Below, one piece after another: positions 1 through 10,361 of a DNA stretch of 64,000 nt. The notes beneath the pieces were generated by a model. The model was not told where the DNA came from. It searched no databases and saw only the letters and a program-made list of their open reading frames with translations. Source of the stretch: Elusimicrobia bacterium UBA5214 (GTDB lineage: Bacteria; Elusimicrobiota; UBA5214); NCBI GenBank assembly GCA_002412545.1, contig DHVG01000013.1, positions 129,315-193,314 of the forward strand, read 5' to 3'. The translations under genes and the position numbers were made by a program. How positions within the stretch are numbered: position 1 is the first letter of the stretch; every line of letters begins with the position of its first letter.

Positions 1-1528
1 AATACAAACCTTTAGATATGAATAACGCAATAATCCAATAATAAGGAACAATTTCTACTGCCCGATAGAAACGGTCCATCCCTGGATTCAATGGCCATAA
101 GAAATAGAGTAACAGAGGATTGACAAAAATGAATAGGACAACTGCTGCGATTGAAAAACAATACAGTGCGCCTGGTTCTTTGCGGAAGAAACAGAACAAA
201 AAAGGTAAAAGCAAATAAGCAAGTGTACGCGGGAAGTTTGTCCATAGTGCCTTAAATGGGTCAATTAACGGGTACGTACCTCCAAGCTTAACGACCGGTT
301 TAAACTCAATAGCCATTGCCTCGGGAGTCAGATAGCATTTATTCACCAAGGGCAGATTAATCTTTGCTGTATAATAAGTAACATAGAAAAATGCCGGAAC
401 TGCAATGAATATTATCGCCAAAAGTATTTTTTTGGGTAGGTTTTCTATCTTGTTTGGTATGAATAAGGAAAACAAAAAGAAACAACCTAAAACAAAAAGT
501 AACATATAAAAATAATAGAAATGGGTCAGTGCTATAACTACTCCTAAAAGGGGAAGAATAAATAGGTATCGTTTGTTCCCTTGATAAATGAATTTGAAGA
601 CAAAAAATAGGATTACCAAGAGAATAATATCCCGGGCTATACTGGCCGGATACTGACTGGTGCTCCAGACCCAAAAAAAGGAAGTAAACTTCCCATCCAG
701 GGTGGAATAACTCATTATCCCATCAAAAAAGACAAAAATTGAAGTTGCCACTGTTGCATAGTTAGCTGAATCAAATACTACACGAGAAACCAACCAGAAA
801 GCAAGAACCATCAAGGAAGTTAAAAAAACCGGTGATAATACCCAAAATTCAACCGGGTCAAGGTGCGTGATTTTACTACCCATTGAAAAAAACAAATACC
901 AAATATTATGTCCGTAGATAGGCCTCGGTAAATCTTTAAGAATATAGTGTCCAAATATTATTTTAGGCAATTCAACTAATTTTCTTATTGCGGTCATATG
1001 ATGGATATAATCTCCAGAAGTGAAACCACCAAAATGAGCGCTGAGCAAAACAACAATTACTAAGAGAAATACAAGCACAAGGATTTGTTTTTTATTTTCC
1101 CATTTTTTCTGATTATTTATTTTTACTTTTTTCTTTTCTTTAGGAGATACGGGAGATTGGAAAGAACCTTTTGAAGAAACTGCAAGATTCACCAAACCAA
1201 ACAAAATGCTTAGAAGCAAATAACCACCAGTCAATTGATTCAAAGTTAGACCTCGCAAGTAGGCAAACAATCCTAAAGGAGTAAATAGTAACAACGAGAA
1301 AACAAATGATAAAGGCCACACTTCAAGTAAGTTAATTTTTTCCTTCGGATAAAAGAGTGCCAGGAGAAAGAATCCTGGTACCAGCGTAATCACTAAATTC
1401 ACAAACACAAAGTTAAACCAAAACAATTCACCCAGAATATTTTTGGCGAATTGCCAATAAATGACTATCAAACTAATCAGACCAAAAACAATTTTTACAG
1501 TTTTATTTTCCACTTTATTAAATTCATT
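1..1528 (-). CDS. polytopic integral membrane protein, 3' end beyond window (partial)
   Basis: Manual minus-strand translation: ATG at 1528..1526 (MNLIKWKIKLVKIVFGLISL...) stays open to position 1, >500 codons with many hydrophobic helices. Not in ORF track because no in-window stop; track ORFs 12..245 and 357..674 are wrong-frame pieces inside it. Confidence 0.6.
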
Positions 1529-1591
1529 AATTTTGTAAAATAAAAAAATTCACTAAACTGTGGGAAAAAGAAACCAAAAATTTTTTTACTA

Positions 1592-2449
1592 TTATTTTGA
1601 ACATTTGAATGTAGTATGCATTCCTGGCCCTGGCACTTTTGCTAATAATTTACCTTCCCAATAAATTATAAAATCTACAGTTAAAATAATGCTAAACCAC
1701 AATATATTTTTTCTTTTACTCACTATTAGAAGATTGGATGTAATTTGAGACAAACCAAAAATATTTGTTAGAAAATCAATGAATAAAAATAGGAGGAGAT
1801 CTGCAATTTGTCCCAACAAATGAAGACTATATTTCCTCTCTCTAGGAATTTCTATAAAACCATACTTCCTAAATATTTTGAGTACCTGTTTTCTACTAAA
1901 AGAGTGGATGTGTCCACCGTATATATTTTTTAAGTTTCTGTAAGGCATGAAATTCCCAATAAACTTCCAAATCGATAAAGAGTCACCTTCACAAGGAACA
2001 AATATATGGAGTTTACCTCCTCGTTTTAGCACACGTCTGCATTCAAAAATGAATTTTTCTGTATCTTTAACATGTTCTAATACATCGAAAAAAATAACAT
2101 AGTCAAAAAAATTATCCGGATAAGGAAATAGGTATTCTCCACATACTGTATAGCTAATGTTGCTCTTGTAATTTTGAGCGATACGAATTCCTGAATGAGA
2201 AATATCACAACCATATGCTTCAATTCTGGGTTTGTTTCTTACAATTGCCCGGATAAATCTTCCCGCGCCACAACCTACCTCGAGTACCCTCCCATTATCA
2301 GAATTAATAGCAGTAAGACAGCGTTCTAATCGCAATTTGGCTATACTATATTCTGAATTAGTAATTTTACCTTGTCCATATATATGAGATTCATAAAAAT
2401 TAGGATTACATATCTCTTTTGGTTTTAATATTTGTGAATTCCCTTCCAT
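1592..2449 (-). CDS. class I SAM-dependent methyltransferase with C-terminal hydrophobic tail
   Basis: Motif I LEVGCGAGRF, post-motif FDVLEHVKD...RVLKRGGKLHIFVP typical of class I methyltransferases. Confidence 0.8.
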   Translation of the reverse strand: MEGNSQILKPKEICNPNFYESHIYGQGKITNSEYSIAKLRLERCLTAINSDNGRVLEVGCGAGRFIRAIVRNKPRIEAYGCDISHSGIRIAQNYKSNISYTVCGEYLFPYPDNFFDYVIFFDVLEHVKDTEKFIFECRRVLKRGGKLHIFVPCEGDSLSIWKFIGNFMPYRNLKNIYGGHIHSFSRKQVLKIFRKYGFIEIPRERKYSLHLLGQIADLLLFLFIDFLTNIFGLSQITSNLLIVSKRKNILWFSIILTVDFIIYWEGKLLAKVPGPGMHTTFKCSK

Positions 2450-2481: not shown

Positions 2482-3894
2482 TTACACTTTACTTATCCCC
2501 TTTGTTTTAATCATATATATTGCACTGACTCCGCTTAATGTATATCTCAAATTTCTAATGTTTGTTAATTTTCTTACACGTTTCAGAATATACTTGGGTC
2601 TGAAATAAAATTGTGTGTAAGCAATGGTAATCAACTTTTCTAATTCCATTTTCGTCATTGTATAGGGAACAAAAACTATCTCCATTCCTTGAAATTTACT
2701 CAAATCATCACAGACTAATTTACCATAGTCATTTAACTTTTCAGCAAGGTCACCGTAAGGAGTAAGTGGAAAAAAGCGAGCATAATCAATGTCAAGTTTT
2801 TTTACAAGTTTAATCGTTTTTAAACCATCCTCAAATGTTTCTCTTGGAATTCCAAAAATAAAAGACGCTTCTACTTCCATTTTGGCTTCTTTAGTCCACT
2901 TTACAGCGTTGAAATTTTGTTCTACAGTGGTACCTTTTCTTAACATATCCAAATTTTTCTGTAACATTGATTCTAAACCATAATGTATTTTCCAACACCC
3001 AGCCGATGCCATCTCTTTTAGTAACTCTTTATCAACTAGGTTGGCTCTTGCTTGAGCAGACCAGAGAATATCCAATTTATTTTTTTTAAGTAATTTTATG
3101 ATTTCTAATAATCTCTTTCTGTTGAGGGTAAGGGTATCGTCCCAGAATGCTATGTCTTTTATTCCATATTCAACCTTTAAATATTTAATTTCTTCAATAA
3201 CCGCTTCCGGACTTCTATAGCGTATTCTTTTTCCTAATACATCGGGAATACAAAAAATACATTGGTACGGACATCCTCGGGTAGTAAAAATATTTGTAAC
3301 CGGTAATTTCTTATATTGGGAAAAAGCCGGCACATAATCCAAAATGTTTACCAGACTCCGGTCAGGAAAAGAAAGTTCATCTACATTTTCAATAACATTC
3401 CGTGAGGGATTTTCAACAATAAACGAATTATCTCGGAAGATTAATCCTTTAATCTTATTTAAATCTCCTCCGTTTTCAATATAATTAACTAATTCTAAAA
3501 GTGTGTACTCACCTTCACCGTATACTAAAGCATCCAATTGAGCAGATTCCTGAAGACATTTCTTTTTAGAGATGGTAGCGTGAACACCACCAATAACAAT
3601 AAATGTTTCTGGGAATTTGTCTTTCAACATAGCGATCATTTCTTTTACTTTTGGCCAAGTAAAGGTCATCACCGAAATACCAATAATCTTTGGTTTTTCT
3701 TCAAAAATTATTCTTAACATTGAAGGAAAGTCAGTCCTACTTCCATCAAGTATGATTACTTGATGACTTGCTCTTTTTAATATTGTGCCCAAAGAGAGCA
3801 ATCCAAGTGGAGGAAGAGTCCCACCCACCTTTGCTATCGCTTTTCCATATCTTTCTTCCAAGGATATTGGCGGTAAAACTAATGCTATTTTCAT
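2482..3894 (-). CDS. B12-binding domain radical SAM protein
   Basis: N-terminal Rossmann-like B12-binding region followed by CxxxCxxC cluster motif (RGCPYQCIFC); 470 aa. Confidence 0.8.
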   Translation of the reverse strand: MKIALVLPPISLEERYGKAIAKVGGTLPPLGLLSLGTILKRASHQVIILDGSRTDFPSMLRIIFEEKPKIIGISVMTFTWPKVKEMIAMLKDKFPETFIVIGGVHATISKKKCLQESAQLDALVYGEGEYTLLELVNYIENGGDLNKIKGLIFRDNSFIVENPSRNVIENVDELSFPDRSLVNILDYVPAFSQYKKLPVTNIFTTRGCPYQCIFCIPDVLGKRIRYRSPEAVIEEIKYLKVEYGIKDIAFWDDTLTLNRKRLLEIIKLLKKNKLDILWSAQARANLVDKELLKEMASAGCWKIHYGLESMLQKNLDMLRKGTTVEQNFNAVKWTKEAKMEVEASFIFGIPRETFEDGLKTIKLVKKLDIDYARFFPLTPYGDLAEKLNDYGKLVCDDLSKFQGMEIVFVPYTMTKMELEKLITIAYTQFYFRPKYILKRVRKLTNIRNLRYTLSGVSAIYMIKTKGISKV

Positions 3895-4207
3895 TTTGTA
3901 CTTTATAATTGTATTTAGCAGTTCTTAACTTTTTTCCCAATTACTAACATTTCTCCACAAGAACTCCAGAACATTATCCAGCTTATTCGTCGTGGCATTA
4001 CCCTAAACAAGCAATTCACAAATGGTGTAAAAAAATAATTTTAACGTCTCTTTGTATTAAGAACTGCATGTACGTAAAATAAATTAAAGAATTTTCTTAC
4101 TGTTCCTTTATAAATCATTCAAAAACCTGTCTTTTCCAAAAGTTTATCTATGGTAAGTGCTGAAAAATAGTAATAACGCTTTGATATAAAAATATACCTA
4201 TTTTTCT

Positions 4208-4572
4208 TTAAAAAATTTTTGCCCTTAGGGAATCAATATCAGAAGTAACAATTATACAAGGACATTCTTTCTTAATAATTTTGTTTATCTCTTTTAACAA
4301 AGTAGTAGAATCAATTACATACTCAACAAGATCAAACATTGTAACCACATTAAAAAAATTGTCATTATATTTCATTTCTTCTAAAGTTCCAGTAGAAATT
4401 CTATCGTTGAATTTTCTCTTTGCTATTAAAATTGATTCAATTCTTCTTTTCTAGGTTGTGGATACTGTCTGATTAACCCACAGGAGGTGCATTGCACGAT
4501 TTTAAATTTATCTCTCTGAAAAAGTCCTTTATAATTATTTGAACCACAAAGATTACAACCGGTATTTTTCAT
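4208..4572 (-). pseudogene. remnant of a zinc-ribbon class I methyltransferase (internal deletion/frameshift)
   Basis: ATG at 4572..4570 overlaps the TGA stop of the upstream radical SAM gene (ATGA). Frame A gives MKNTGCNLCGSNNYKGLFQRDKFKIVQCTSCGLIRQYPQPRKEELNQF then TAA at 4428..4426; a second frame continues to a stop at 4210..4208 with ...FNVVTMFDLVEYVIDSTTLLKEINKIIKKECPCIIVTSD, resembling the C-terminal half of the 1592..2449 methyltransferase. The SAM-binding motif I region is missing. Confidence 0.5.
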
Positions 4573-5975
4573 CTTCCAGAAAAATATTTTATGCCTACTC
4601 TAATAAAGTATAAAGTCCGTTTTAAAGGAAATATCATTTTTATATAGTAAAAGATTATTTTAGGTCTTAAATAGAATTGAATCATAATCATTTGTTGAAT
4701 CCTTTTCAATTTCTTTATGGATATTGAATCCGGAGAATATACGGGAATAGCAAGGGAACCTTTTGATAGATGAAGAGAGGAATATTCTATTTTTTTTTCA
4801 CTCTTAAGCTGTTCTGTTATTTCAGAACCGGGTAGGGGGCAAAACAAAGAAAAAGTTGCTCCGACGAGATCCAGTTCTAGTGCAAGTTGTTTGGTTTTCA
4901 TAATGTCCTCAATAGTTTCATCAGGATATCCTAAAATAAAAAAAGCATGAATAGGTAAACTGCATCGCCTTACCAACGATACTTTTTCTCTTATCAAATT
5001 TAGGTTTAATCCTTTCTTCATATTGTTAAGAATCTTTTGAGAGCCGGATTCAATACCAAGAACAATCGAGTGACATCCTGATTTCTTCATCCAAGGCAAT
5101 ATTTCTTCGGTTAATGAATTTAACCTAATTCCGTTGTGCATTGTCCACTTTATTTTTATATTATTCTCAATTAGAGATTTACAAAATTCTATTACAAATG
5201 AAGAGTTGTGTATAAAATTGTCATCGGTAATTAAAATTTCTTCTACTTTAAATTTGTAATATAATAATTTAATTTCTGAGATTACACTCTCAAGGGAACG
5301 CGAACGCATTTTTCTCCCTGATATTTTATAACCGACACAGAAAGTACATCTGTATGGACATCCTCTGGTAACCACTATGGGTGCTGATTTCATTGTTCTT
5401 GCCTGAAAAGTCGGCATAAATTTATGATAAAGTGACAAATCCAAAACTGTTCCCCAAGGAGGATGCCCAAAAGAGTCAACATTCTCATAAAATATTGGTT
5501 CATTGCATATAATTCCTTTTTCTGTCCTATAGATTAAACCTGGTATTTTGTTTGCCCATCCAGTGATATCTTTCTTTGATGTAAGGCAATCTATGAACTT
5601 CGGTACACTAATTTCTCCTTCCCCTTGGAAAGCATAATCAATCCATTTTAATTGGTTTAATACTTCATAGGGAGCTGATGAAGGATGGGGTCCTCCTGCA
5701 AGAGTTATGGTATTCGGCCTGTTTCTTTTTATAATTTCTGATATTTTATCTACTACGGAAACATCGGTAGAAAACATCGTAATTCCTAATACATCGGGAT
5801 CGACTTCGTTAATTCGCTTTATTACCGATTGCATATCCAATCTTTCCGCATGAGCATCAAGAATTACAACCTCATACCCTCTTTTCAATAAAGCAGTAGC
5901 AAGATAACCTAATCCTAAAGGAGGCATTACCCAAAAAGAACTTTTTTTTATGGGGACCAATAGAAAAATACGCAT
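4569..5975 (-). CDS. B12-binding domain radical SAM protein (paralog of 2482..3894)
   Basis: CxxxCxxC motif RGCPYRCTFC and N-terminal B12-binding-like domain; same architecture as the neighbouring gene. Confidence 0.8.
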   Translation of the reverse strand: MRIFLLVPIKKSSFWVMPPLGLGYLATALLKRGYEVVILDAHAERLDMQSVIKRINEVDPDVLGITMFSTDVSVVDKISEIIKRNRPNTITLAGGPHPSSAPYEVLNQLKWIDYAFQGEGEISVPKFIDCLTSKKDITGWANKIPGLIYRTEKGIICNEPIFYENVDSFGHPPWGTVLDLSLYHKFMPTFQARTMKSAPIVVTRGCPYRCTFCVGYKISGRKMRSRSLESVISEIKLLYYKFKVEEILITDDNFIHNSSFVIEFCKSLIENNIKIKWTMHNGIRLNSLTEEILPWMKKSGCHSIVLGIESGSQKILNNMKKGLNLNLIREKVSLVRRCSLPIHAFFILGYPDETIEDIMKTKQLALELDLVGATFSLFCPLPGSEITEQLKSEKKIEYSSLHLSKGSLAIPVYSPDSISIKKLKRIQQMIMIQFYLRPKIIFYYIKMIFPLKRTLYFIRVGIKYFSGR

Positions 5976-6026
5976 AAATTTTAAATTCTAGAAAATTTAA
6001 TTTAAGATATTTTTAATAAGCGCTTT

Positions 6027-7181
6027 TTATTTGTTAATTTCCTTTTTGACTGCTTCAAATACTTCGTCAACTTCTATCGCCTGTAAACATTTTGGTTCAT
6101 TATACCGGCAACGACCTGTTTTCTGGTCATACACATGAATACAAGGACTACAAGAAATGTTCTTAAAGAACACTTTATGTCTATTACCTCTCGGACCATA
6201 AATTACTGGTGTTTCCGGACCAAAAAATGAAATGGTTGAAATATCAAGGGCATAAGCAATATGTAAAGGACCAGCGTCATTAGAAATAAATAATCTTACT
6301 TTTGAGATAAAACTTACCAATTGCTTTAAGTCAAGTTTACCTGCAAGATTTATTATTTTGTTTAAACTATTAGTTGCATTAATTATCTCTCCTACATAAT
6401 GTCTTTCATCTTCTGCCCCAATCAAAACAATTTTTACTTTGTTACTAAGATTAGCGATCCTGTCAATTAAACTAACAAATTTTTCTTTTGGCCATCTTCT
6501 TTGAAGACCAAGTGGACCAGCATTCACATTTATTCCAATTATATTATCCGATTTGTTAATTTCATATTCTTGCAATAAATTTTTTATGGTTTCATCAGAG
6601 GGAGTTTTTATTTCTGGATGGTATATTTGGTTAATAGTAGTCACTCCCACTGCGGCATTAATAAAATTTTCAGAAACATGCCAGTAATAATTAAAGGGAA
6701 TGTTAACATCATGAAAATTTCCTCTCCATATATCCCATGCATGAAAACCTACCCTTTTTTTTGCTCCGGCAAGGAAACTGAAAATTGCAGAAAATCGTGT
6801 AAAGAATTCAAAATCAAATAATATGTCATATTTCATTTTTCTTATTTTTATAAGTAGTTTTAGAACGTTTAATATAAAGGGAGTAAAATTTTTTTCTAAT
6901 CTTAATACTAATACATTGTCCAATTCTGGAATTAGTTCACATATTCCTTTATTCTGATGGAAGGTAAGAAAATCAATTCTTACTTCGGGATACCTTTGTC
7001 TCAACAACTTTATAGCAGGTGTAGTTTCTATAATACTTCCAACTCCCCAGAATTTTATTATAAGAATCTTTCCCACTTTTTCTATATTTACTCTTTTCCG
7101 TAGCCAGTTAAATGGCTGCAAAATAAGGCATAACAATTTGCCAACCCATAAATCTATTCTACGCATTGTCCATAATGTCAT
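6027..7181 (-). CDS. glycosyltransferase family 9 (heptosyltransferase-like)
   Basis: GT9 C-terminal signature NDAGPLHIAYALDISTISFFGPETP; 384 aa. Confidence 0.75.
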   Translation of the reverse strand: MTLWTMRRIDLWVGKLLCLILQPFNWLRKRVNIEKVGKILIIKFWGVGSIIETTPAIKLLRQRYPEVRIDFLTFHQNKGICELIPELDNVLVLRLEKNFTPFILNVLKLLIKIRKMKYDILFDFEFFTRFSAIFSFLAGAKKRVGFHAWDIWRGNFHDVNIPFNYYWHVSENFINAAVGVTTINQIYHPEIKTPSDETIKNLLQEYEINKSDNIIGINVNAGPLGLQRRWPKEKFVSLIDRIANLSNKVKIVLIGAEDERHYVGEIINATNSLNKIINLAGKLDLKQLVSFISKVRLFISNDAGPLHIAYALDISTISFFGPETPVIYGPRGNRHKVFFKNISCSPCIHVYDQKTGRCRYNEPKCLQAIEVDEVFEAVKKEINK

Positions 7182-7890
7182 TTCTATTTTTCTCCTTAGA
7201 ACCGAGGTAGAGATAAATGTAAAATTAATCCCATATTTTAAGTATCTTGCTGACCGTTATTGTCCAAGTTAACAAAGTAACCCCAATATTTGGACAGCAA
7301 GGTGTTTTTGGGAACTAGCAATGAAGATTTAAACTTTAAGTTGTTGATTAATAAATCAAAAAATAACTAAACTCGCCAATATTATTTGTAAATCGGGTAC
7401 AGTAGAAATAGAGGAAACTATTAGTAAAAAGTCGTACCACCCTGTCTATTTTGGAATCTTTTGAGTAAATACGGTGCGGTTTGCTTAAAAATTTCTGTTT
7501 AGAATAAAATCCTCTGTTTACGGTGTTAGCGAATAGATGTCCTTTATTATAAAGTTATAAAATTATCCTTAATTATTATTTTAACAAAAATATTGGGAAA
7601 AAACAAGGTTTTAGGTAGGAATTTAATTCAGAAAACTTGTTAAGACCACTCAAAGATTAGGACATAAGTTAGAATTGGTAATTAAAAGTTAAGGTTCTAT
7701 TTGAAAGAAATAAGCAATGATATTCTTTTCGTTCACTTACAGGCAAAATTTTTGTTTATCCGAATATTTATAGGACAAATTGATAACTGTTATTTTTTTA
7801 TTCTTTTTTCAATTTAATCTCTTTTGAATTAAACTTTATACGTCATTTCAGTACAATCATCTTTTTTGTATCCACAAAACTACGGCTTCA

Positions 7891-7937
7891 CCCTCACCTT
7901 TTTCCTCTCCCCTCGGAGGGAGAGGGTCGGGTGAGGG
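7891..7937. repeat. GC-rich nested inverted repeat (two-stem hairpin) just past the stop of the LamG/T9SS gene
   Basis: Outer stem ccctcacc (7891..7898) pairs with ggtgaggg (7930..7937); inner stem cctctccc (7904..7911) pairs with gggagagg (7918..7925). Strongly GC-rich against an AT-rich background; no U-tract follows on the minus strand. Confidence 0.8.
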
Positions 7938-7945
7938 GCAATCTT

Positions 7946-8952
7946 TTACTTCAATACTACCATTTTCTTAGTGTCAACAAAACTACCGGCTTTCACCTGG
8001 TAGTAGTAGATTCCTCTTGAGAGTTCGTCACTTTGATTAAATACAACTTTATGCGGACCAGCCGTTTGCCACTCGTCAACCAAGGTTGCTACTTCCTCTC
8101 CACCAACATTGTATAACTTTATGGTTACCTGACAATCCTGAGCAACGGAATACTCAATTGTTGTTGCTGGATTAAACGGATTTGGATAATTTTGTCCCAG
8201 AGAGTTGACATCTGCAGTTGCTGATGGACTAACTACGATTGTCCGTGGCTTACCGGGTTTCACATTTCCTTCGTAATGTGCTTTAATTTCTTCAGCACTT
8301 AAAGCACGGTTGTAAACCCGAGATTCATCGATTGTTCCTTTGAACCAATTGTAATCTCCGGAAAGACAGTGTGCTCCAATTTGTAAAGGAACATCATTAG
8401 TCACTATATGACCTGAAATTAGTCTGTTGCCTGTTTCAACACCGTTTACATATATTCGCTCAACAGAACCATCGTATGTCCCAACGATATGCGCCCACTC
8501 ACCAAAGGTAAGATTAACTGACGAAACTATGTAATTCCAAGTATTAGTATAAAGTACTAACTGAGGAGTTATTCCATTAGGTTGCAACTCCAGTACATAA
8601 CCACTTCATCCTCCCCACTTTGAACGATTATTTGATGATCTCCCGTTGTTTTAATAGGCTTAATCCACGCTTCAATTGTAATTGCATCTGTAATATCGAA
8701 ATTACTCGAATCATTCACACGTACATAATCATCCACTCCATCAAAACTTAGTGCTTTGCCAACTTTACCATCTACCCAGGTCGCACCGTAGATTGTTCCA
8801 TCATTACTATTTCCTGAATAGTCATGGGCGATTGTTCCTTCCCCTTCATCAAAACTCCAGTAACCAACTAAACCTTCTTCTGCTTTAAGCCGCTGTGTAA
8901 GAAGAAATAGTCCAAATTCTACCATAACCAAAAATCCAAAAATTTTTTTCAT
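7946..8952 (-). pseudogene. secreted LamG (concanavalin-like) domain protein with T9SS C-terminal sorting domain, split by an apparent frameshift
   Basis: Track ORFs 8569..8952 (signal peptide, LamG N-half GLVGYWSFDEGEG...IEAWIKP) and 7946..8587 (LamG C-half ...GEWAHIVGTYDGS..., then NYPNPFNPATTIEY...YYYQV T9SS-type tail) overlap by 19 nt in different frames. The downstream ORF starts at TTG. Frame switch near 8587..8625 beside a C-rich run; could be a real pseudogene or an assembly indel. Confidence 0.55.
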
Positions 8953-9393: not shown

Positions 9394-10218
9394 CTATTCG
9401 GATAACCCACTTTTAATTTCTTGAAGAGAGATGCTTTCTTTAAGAATAAAGAAAAGTCCAAGGAGAGTAACTAAAAGAAAATTAAAGAAATGGTGAGTTA
9501 AAGTAAAACTTAAGGCAAGTTCTTTGTTAATTTTATAAAAACTTAAAGCCAACACACCAAAAAATTCCCATGTCCCGATGTAACCCGGAGAAGAAGGAAT
9601 AGTTACACTTACTCCTACAATTCCTAAAAAAAACATCGCCGCGCTAAAAGGTAACTTCATATTGAAAGCGAAAAACATTACATAAACGCCTGAAATGTAA
9701 ATAAACCAAAGAATAAACGAAATAAAAAAAATCTTTAATAGAAGGTGCCCTTGTCGTAAAACTTTAAATCCGCTCACAAAAGAATTAAAAAGTTGGACAG
9801 ATCTCTCAGCAAGTTTTACGGAAAAAAAAGAAATTATTTTCTTCCCTAATTTCTCAGTTTGTTTCTCAAACTTAAGCAAAAAAGTAAAAAAAACTGCTAA
9901 ACCAAAAATAACAATAACCAAAGCAAAAATATTTATCTCTTTAGGAAGGACAAAAAAAAATGAAATGATAAAAAAAATAGAAATTAAGAAAATTAGGTCA
10001 GTCAGCCGCTCTAAAACTACAGTAGAAAAGACCGTACTTTTACTAATTTTTTCTTTTCGTCCTAAAAAATATGCCTGGACTAAATCACCAAAACGAAAAG
10101 GAAAAAGATTATTTGCTGCCTGACCAACACAGGTTGCGGAAACTAAACTAAATAAAGGTACCTTTTTTTGGGGAAGAAGCAAGTAACACCAACGAATACT
10201 ACGGACAAATAAACCCAA
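9394..10218 (-). CDS. flippase-like membrane protein (lysylphosphatidylglycerol synthase TM-region family, UPF0104-like); true start probably upstream
   Basis: Multi-TM protein with FGDLVQAYFL and PSSPGYIGTWE motifs. Track start is TTG; the frame stays open ~50 codons further upstream (..KKALWFGLLISVFFLVLVFYKIDFKEFF..) with no ATG/GTG/TTG. Confidence 0.6.
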   Translation of the reverse strand: MGLFVRSIRWCYLLLPQKKVPLFSLVSATCVGQAANNLFPFRFGDLVQAYFLGRKEKISKSTVFSTVVLERLTDLIFLISIFFIISFFFVLPKEINIFALVIVIFGLAVFFTFLLKFEKQTEKLGKKIISFFSVKLAERSVQLFNSFVSGFKVLRQGHLLLKIFFISFILWFIYISGVYVMFFAFNMKLPFSAAMFFLGIVGVSVTIPSSPGYIGTWEFFGVLALSFYKINKELALSFTLTHHFFNFLLVTLLGLFFILKESISLQEIKSGLSE

Positions 10219-10361
10219 AACACCGATTAGTAAAGCAAAAATTACATAAAAAAAATTGACTTTTTTTAAAGTAGAGAAAAATTCTTTGAAATCAATTTTA
10301 TAAAAAACTAAAACTAAAAAAAATACACTAATCAGTAGTCCAAACCATAAAGCTTTTTTCT

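Follow-up and report, generated by a model that had tools for sequence, protein, structure and literature searches.

A probable unitary pseudogene of a zinc-ribbon methyltransferase between two B12-binding radical SAM genes in an Elusimicrobiota glycan locus

Unitary pseudogenes are an established general phenomenon in the surface-polysaccharide and lipopolysaccharide loci of bacteria. The family of the ancestral protein discussed here, an uncharacterised zinc-ribbon branch of the class I methyltransferases, is found in cell-envelope glycan loci. Its intact members considered below comprise 15 proteins of 280–307 aa (P0001–P0015), found with E-values down to 2e-21 in a search of 5.8 billion protein clusters, and the products of two genes located at 9434..10336 of the Logan contig L003 and at 1188..2117 of L015, a contig of a Brocadiales MAG. 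These uncharacterised proteins match Pfam Methyltransf_23, Methyltransf_11 or Methyltransf_25, and members of the family are annotated in the sources merely as “class I SAM-dependent methyltransferase.” Neither Methyltransf_13 nor Methyltransf_14 was matched in the Pfam search, and NCBIfam gave no specific family above cut-off for these methyltransferases or for the radical SAM genes of the locus. PDB entry 4e2x is a TcaB9-type sugar C-methyltransferase, in which an N-terminal Cys4 zinc domain is joined to a class I methyltransferase acting on nucleotide sugars. The family resembles TcaB9 in its general architecture (a zinc ribbon ahead of a Rossmann methyltransferase) and in its glycan-biosynthesis setting; the intact L003 homologue matches 4e2x_A only marginally (E=9e-4, no stretch passing alone), and better PDB matches were obtained to small uncharacterised methyltransferases (3cc8, 1vlm, and 3dli), the best being the structural-genomics entries 3cc8 and 1vlm.

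The sequence analysed here, termed the window, is a 64,000-nucleotide stretch of the genome of Elusimicrobia bacterium UBA5214 (assembly GCA_002412545.1, contig DHVG01000013.1, positions 129,315 to 193,314), and positions are those of the window unless another contig is named. It contains a glycan locus with GT9 heptosyltransferase-family genes, an NAD-dependent epimerase gene, further methyltransferase genes, and genes for B12-radical SAM enzymes. The 677-base spacer between two of the latter (3895..4572) is best read as one carcass of a single gene; from its sequence, it is very probably a unitary pseudogene of a class I SAM-dependent methyltransferase of approximately 290–300 aa with an N-terminal Cys4 zinc ribbon.

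Layout of the spacer and its surroundings

In this part of the window, every long gene is on the minus strand, and the features of the spacer are described in that direction. Upstream of the spacer is an intact gene encoding a B12-binding radical SAM protein of 468 aa (4569..5975; Pfam B12-binding and Radical_SAM), for which the public gene call begins at a later ATG; downstream is a second intact B12-binding radical SAM gene of 470 aa (2482..3894; Pfam). The TGA stop codon of the upstream gene (4571..4569) overlaps an ATG (4572..4570) in the sequence ATGA (4572..4569), and this ATG opens a 48-codon reading frame (4572..4426) that matches P0001 and encodes the Cys4 zinc ribbon with which the former methyltransferase began. 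The translation of this first fragment, MKNTGCNLCGS...CTSCGL...NQF (in full MKNTGCNLCGSNNYKGLFQRDKFKIVQCTSCGLIRQYPQPRKEELNQF), is closed by the tandem stop codons TAA TAG (4428..4423). The original prediction had noticed both the overlap and the zinc-ribbon frame, and had described the remnant as translationally coupled; this description holds as anatomy for the 48-codon frame, and for nothing beyond it.

A deletion junction, accompanied by a change of frame, is situated at 4423..4432, where the coordinate of the homologue leaps from residue 56 to residue 135 of P0001 between 4432 and 4426. The second fragment (approximately 4426..4208) lies in a second frame, matches Methyltransf_11 and P0001, and extends from beyond motif II to beyond motif III. 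This frame is open from 4450 to 4211, ends at a stop codon at 4210..4208, and reads IAKRKFNDRISTGTLEEMKYNDNFFNVVTMFDLVEYV...IIKKECPCIIVTSDIDSLRAKIF, also containing IAKRKFNDRISTGTLEEMKYNDNFFNVVTMFDLVEYVIDSTTLLKEINKIIKKECPCIIVTSDIDSLRAKIF, with the recognisable blocks GTLEE...FNVVTMFDLVEYVIDS...IIKKECPCIIVTSDIDSLRAKIF; the 55-aa ORF reported by gene callers (4375..4208) is located inside it. The remnant had been thought to end at 4208, but a third frame continues through approximately 4205..4122 and, past a stop codon, to 4044. This third fragment, LKKNRYIFISKRYYYFSALTIDKLLEKTGF, is the C-terminal “YFSxxTIxKLLEKTGF” block, matches P0001 and P0004, and covers Methyltransf_23 positions 130–162. 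It is followed by an in-frame TGA (4121..4119) at a site where several homologues read GF-E, and then, in the same frame, by the 25 codons of a fourth fragment, MIYKGTVRKFFNLFYVHAVLNTKRR (4118..4044), which in the alignment falls on the region “GRY FNLGY..” of the homologues. The stop codon of this frame is positioned at 4043..4041, and the fourth fragment is the last recognisable piece. The remaining ~145 bases (approximately 3895..4040) carry no coding signal in any frame by codon usage and gave no significant tblastn match from the intact homologues; this tail is presumably a fully degraded, poorly conserved C-terminus, and is now the spacer 5′ of the radical SAM gene at 2482..3894.

Several other irregularities are present on the minus strand of the window. 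Within 4 kb of the remnant, a secreted LamG gene with a T9SS sorting domain (7946..8952) is split by a frame change into the ORFs 8569..8952, which covers Laminin_G_3 positions 1–49, and 7946..8587, which covers positions 60–151 together with Por_Secre_tail; the two overlap by 19 bases, the junction is not in a homopolymer, and the gene is a probable second pseudogene or frameshift. The last 12 codons of this gene (SFVDTKKMVVLK) recur 103 bases downstream as SFVDTKKMIVLK (7847..7986), forming a 37-nt direct repeat that is 78% identical, with a G+C-rich hairpin (about 7900–7945) between the copies; the repeat looks like the relic of another gene with a T9SS tail in the otherwise ORF-free gap 7182..7945. 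Further upstream, the LPG_synthase_TM gene (9394..10361) is listed from a TTG at 10218, corresponding to Pfam profile position 47, while its frame has no stop codon upstream as far as 10359, and this extension would plausibly encode a membrane segment at the N-terminus (KKALWFGLLISVFFLVLVFYKIDF...); no ATG, GTG, or TTG is found in it, its G+C content is 21%, and the start codon may have been lost or may be non-canonical.

Homology and lesions of the remnant

The relationship of the remnant to methyltransferases is detected both by profiles and by alignment to intact proteins. The second fragment alone scores 26.8 bits against Methyltransf_11 (E=8.4e-6; Pfam cut-off 21.2), which bears out the earlier view that the second frame is methyltransferase-like, and the stitched translation of 176 residues scores 38.4 bits against Methyltransf_23 (E=1.3e-9; cut-off 27) over positions 73–162 of 164. 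In tblastn comparisons of the intact homologues with the spacer, for which E-values were computed for a single subject, P0001 residues 11–56 matched 4569–4432 (48% identity, E=2e-13), residues 135–213 matched 4426–4193 (43%, E=8e-15), and residues 200–240 matched 4238–4122 (41%, E=2e-4), while P0004 residues 218–242 matched the third fragment with 48% identity. The three pieces are collinear and lie in three frames, and the similarity goes beyond chance. The N-terminal ribbon CNLCG...CxxCGL is carried by 15 of 15 intact relatives, all of which are class I methyltransferases, and the alignment-invariant residues C6, N7, L8, C9, G10, C28, C31, and P38 are all present in the 48-aa ORF. Identity to any intact member is at most 37% overall and reaches 48% in single fragments.

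The principal lesion is located at the junction 4423..4432, where 67–84 residues are missing, depending on the homologue (~200–250 bp). The absent segment includes 14 columns conserved in the family alignment, among them motif I (LDVGCAxG), GW, and GVE; the loss of motif I, as noted originally, is evident both from this alignment and from the profile coverage. The segment carrying motifs I and II is encoded in no frame of the spacer and nowhere else in the window; therefore the pieces could not reconstitute a SAM-binding enzyme, which speaks against the original alternative of a split gene. The frame changes at the deletion junction itself and again within the homopolymer-rich stretch GCAAAAATTTTTTAAAGAAAAATAGG (approximately 4195–4222), which contains A5, T6, and A5 runs. 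Substitutions affect 5 of the 17 columns of the second fragment that are at least 75% conserved (EH to EY, DP to DS, R to K, G to C, and P to S) and two of the seven such columns of the third (W to R, and the H of “HxxYFS” to R). Across fragments 2–4, 18 of 26 columns that are at least 75% conserved are retained; the first fragment retains 10 of 11, as well as 7 of 7 columns that are at least 90% conserved, but with so few columns no case for selection on the stub can be made.

Neither the glycine-rich loop of motif I (xLDxGCGxG) nor the acidic residue of motif II is present, and an uninterrupted frame of ~280–310 codons is replaced by three frames with stops at 4428..4423, 4210..4208, and 4121..4119. 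Judged from its sequence, the remnant appears to descend from the Methyltransf_23/Methyltransf_11 family without being a functional member of it. Homology to intact proteins of 280–309 aa and disabling lesions (67–84 residues lost, two frame changes, and an internal stop) are thus found together and reproducibly, in agreement with the suggestion of a pseudogene.

The spacer was also inspected for other elements. A promoter and terminator scan gave a background result (7 found versus 5.7 expected), a search of Rfam over the window gave nothing at gathering thresholds, with two chance-level matches only at E<=1 on 3800–4700, and a tRNA search found none. The repeats of the spacer are short and probably due to chance. 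A perfect 12-nt inverted repeat (4433..4444 and 4673..4684) has one arm at the deletion junction and the other in the 3′ end of the radical SAM gene; it is probably a chance occurrence in AT-rich sequence.

The same slot in relatives

Directly downstream of each of the two nearest relatives of the upstream radical SAM gene lies an intact gene for a zinc-ribbon methyltransferase, with motif I present. On L003, the radical SAM protein (P0017) is 75% identical and a methyltransferase of 300 aa (9434..10336) follows after a spacer of 26 bases; on L015, which was found by a second genome scan with a three-sequence alignment, the radical SAM protein is 56% identical and a methyltransferase of 309 aa (1188..2117) follows after 7 bases. 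When the upstream radical SAM protein alone served as query, the genome collection yielded nothing and a metagenome scan yielded only a 25% relative. L003 shares with the window the order GT9, radical SAM, methyltransferase, B12-radical SAM, and P0001 is likewise located in a cluster of glycosyltransferase and epimerase genes.

The L003 and L015 proteins are 48% identical to each other as methyltransferases and 55% as radical SAM proteins, and the remnant is 25–30% identical to the methyltransferases in their slots, against 37% overall to P0001. Since an orthologue beside a 75%-identical radical SAM gene should far exceed this value, the remnant would belong to the same family as the slot methyltransferases of the closest relatives without being their vertical orthologue, and the argument for an ancestral methyltransferase in this slot rests for the same reason on family membership and position, not on orthology. 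The ribbon linker of the remnant is short, as in P0001–P0003, whereas the L003 and L015 proteins have a long linker. Homologues at a greater distance from the upstream radical SAM gene (42–44% identity; L010–L014) lie in glycan loci with no methyltransferase in the slot; a 48-aa ORF upstream of the L010 radical SAM gene shows no relationship to the zinc ribbon. For the downstream radical SAM gene, the relatives (68 and 61% identity) stand in other gene orders and are not preceded by a methyltransferase gene, and hence no true orthologue of the remnant was recovered through them.

Comparison of window 4569..7181 with L003 6807..11781 showed that identity varies from gene to gene: 75% for the radical SAM protein (even along its length), 42% for GT9, 25–30% in the methyltransferase slot, and 35% for the next radical SAM protein. 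This unevenness suggests gene-by-gene mosaicism or the recent transfer of the upstream radical SAM gene alone, and the locus as a whole appears, from these comparisons, to be a mosaic of interchangeable glycan-modification genes.

Two proteins of such loci merit separate mention. A 694-aa homologue of the downstream radical SAM protein (P0229) combines class I methyltransferase, B12-binding, and Radical_SAM domains (Pfam), a fusion that hints at a functional link between a methyltransferase and B12-radical SAM enzymes. The methyltransferase gene at 1592..2449 is followed by a gene for a 668-aa protein without a Pfam domain (1..1513, minus strand), which runs off the window; the region 1..1590, ORF-free at first sight, is part of this gene. 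A 661-aa relative (32% identity over 521 aa) is encoded at L030 3011..4996, immediately 5′ of the radical SAM gene with 68% identity, and proteins of this type are a recurring uncharacterised component of these loci.

Decay of the gene and alternative readings

An assembly or sequencing artefact, with an intact single-frame methyltransferase in the true genome and indels introduced by assembly, would fit the position of the second frame change in the A5/T6/A5 runs, a typical place for indel errors, and the frame split of the LamG/T9SS gene (7946..8952). Against it, the window lies within the 230-kb JGI contig Ga0134309_00005 (3300038308), to which it is identical over the 13.9 kb compared, and three more assemblies agree at 100% identity over the 4–6 kb that surrounds the remnant: Logan SRR1573578_82, GCA_002400355.1 (DHFL01000041.1), and JGI 3300030373. 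The run SRR1573578 derives from arsenic-contaminated groundwater in Bangladesh (PMC7327174). NCBI lists the LepA protein of the window under Elusimicrobia/Elusimicrobiota. The four identical assemblies were made by different pipelines, but may share reads or samples. Moreover, the main lesion is the loss of 200–250 bp of catalytic core, not a 1-base indel; an in-frame TGA and substitutions at conserved residues accompany it; and no intact near-identical protein was found in 5.8 billion clusters. Because several pipelines gave the same sequence and the main lesion exceeds 200 bp, an artefact is very unlikely. The original prediction had suggested decay after duplication. A decayed tandem duplicate, in which a local pair of radical SAM and methyltransferase genes would have been duplicated and the second methyltransferase copy would have decayed, is extremely unlikely: the order radical SAM, remnant, radical SAM, methyltransferase does resemble a repeated two-gene unit, but the radical SAM proteins encoded at 4569..5975 and 2482..3894 are only 30% identical, no DNA-level repeat is found, and the methyltransferase encoded at 1592..2449 has no zinc ribbon, is 29% identical to the remnant over 89 aa, and is not the parent copy. 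The remnant is nearer to unrelated metagenomic proteins (37–48%), and neither the window nor the next 3.4 kb contains a closer paralogue.

A split or partly functional gene, in which the coupled 48-aa zinc-ribbon ORF is kept as a small protein (for example, one that partners the radical SAM enzyme), alone or together with the second fragment of 55–80 aa, draws on the perfect ATGA overlap, the clean closure in tandem stops, and the retention of every invariant zinc-ribbon residue, with the higher column retention of the first fragment. The difference in retention, however, is small; the codon usage of this fragment (0.00 bits/codon) is the lowest of all fragments and ~2.5 SD below that of real genes; the closest relatives carry a full-length methyltransferase with a spacer instead of an overlap; searches for a free-standing homologue of the 48-aa peptide gave none; and the second fragment has neither a start-codon context nor SAM-binding motifs. 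Such a gene is accordingly improbable. There is a similarly slim chance that the ATGA-coupled Cys4 stub has been retained as a new micro-protein working with the radical SAM enzyme, or that the homopolymer frame change is a strain-variable on/off site for one glycan methylation. The DHFL01000041.1 and JGI Ga0134312_100236 contigs, from two other assemblies of the same population, both end, within 7 bases of each other, at ~5216..5223 inside the radical SAM gene 4569..5975; these shared ends may mark a boundary of strain variation upstream of the remnant.

In the unitary pseudogene, an internal loss of ~200–250 bp took away motif I, the glycine loop that binds SAM, together with the acidic motif II, and changed the frame; further lesions are the homopolymer frame change near 4205–4215, the TGA in the C-terminal block, the substitutions, and the disappearance of the coding signal of the tail. 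No methyltransferase product would then be possible, and the glycan of the locus would lack one methylation step. The spacer is presumably transcribed with its same-strand neighbours; ribosomes ending the radical SAM gene can probably still restart at the overlapping AUG and produce a 48-aa Cys4 peptide as a by-product, and the remainder beyond the 48-codon ORF would be untranslated.

Inactivation seems to have been fairly recent relative to the divergence of the family, since each fragment keeps a long open stretch and the codon usage of the genome in its own frame. At the composition of the spacer, the chance of an open stretch is P of about 4e-4 for 80 codons and 9e-3 for 48 codons. Against a gene mean of 0.38 bits/codon (sd 0.15) and an off-frame mean of -0.90, fragments 2–4 score +0.23 to +0.30 (fragment 4, +0.23) and fragment 1 scores 0.0; the score of each fragment is highest in its own frame, the other two frames of fragment 4 are negative, and the tail scores -0.35 to -1.0 in all three frames. 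At 27.7%, the G+C content of the remnant region is below the minimum (29.0%) of the 35 intact genes sampled, whose mean is 34.7%; this fits relaxed selection in an AT-biased genome, and it fits the origin of the region as a foreign cassette as well. The low G+C, the lost conserved residues, and the silent tail are indirect signs of relaxed selection. No close intact orthologue is available (best 37–48% per fragment) against which the lesions could be retraced one base at a time or given an age.

In the public annotation, a single pseudogene should take the place of the 48-aa and 55-aa “hypothetical proteins”; it then explains the 677-base “intergenic” stretch. For this Elusimicrobiota population, the remnant would represent the loss of one methylation step in a mosaic envelope-glycan locus. 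The succession of a B12-radical SAM gene and a zinc-ribbon methyltransferase gene recurs in the closest relatives, and offers a small lead on uncharacterised radical SAM enzymes. The feature is otherwise a standard unitary pseudogene, a dead gene of an ordinary sort within a cell-surface sugar locus of variable content, with little import beyond annotation.

In comparison with the intact zinc-ribbon methyltransferases, the remnant shares the CNLCG...CxxCGL...P ribbon and the blocks GTLEE, FDVVTMFDVxEHV, PNxxSLxAK, and HxxYFSxxTLxxLLEKxGF in their original order; unlike them, it lacks the residues bearing motifs I and II, is distributed over three frames with an internal stop, and carries substitutions at conserved H, P, G, and W positions. 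It resembles the known pseudogenes of surface-polysaccharide loci in that a modification gene has been disabled by deletion, homopolymer frameshift, and nonsense codon while the flanking biosynthetic genes are intact, and in that the content of the locus is mosaic between relatives. The sole distinction from these ordinary surface-locus pseudogenes, and the one mildly unusual point, is the intact zinc-ribbon stub of 48 codons, which is retained in ATGA overlap with the radical SAM gene.
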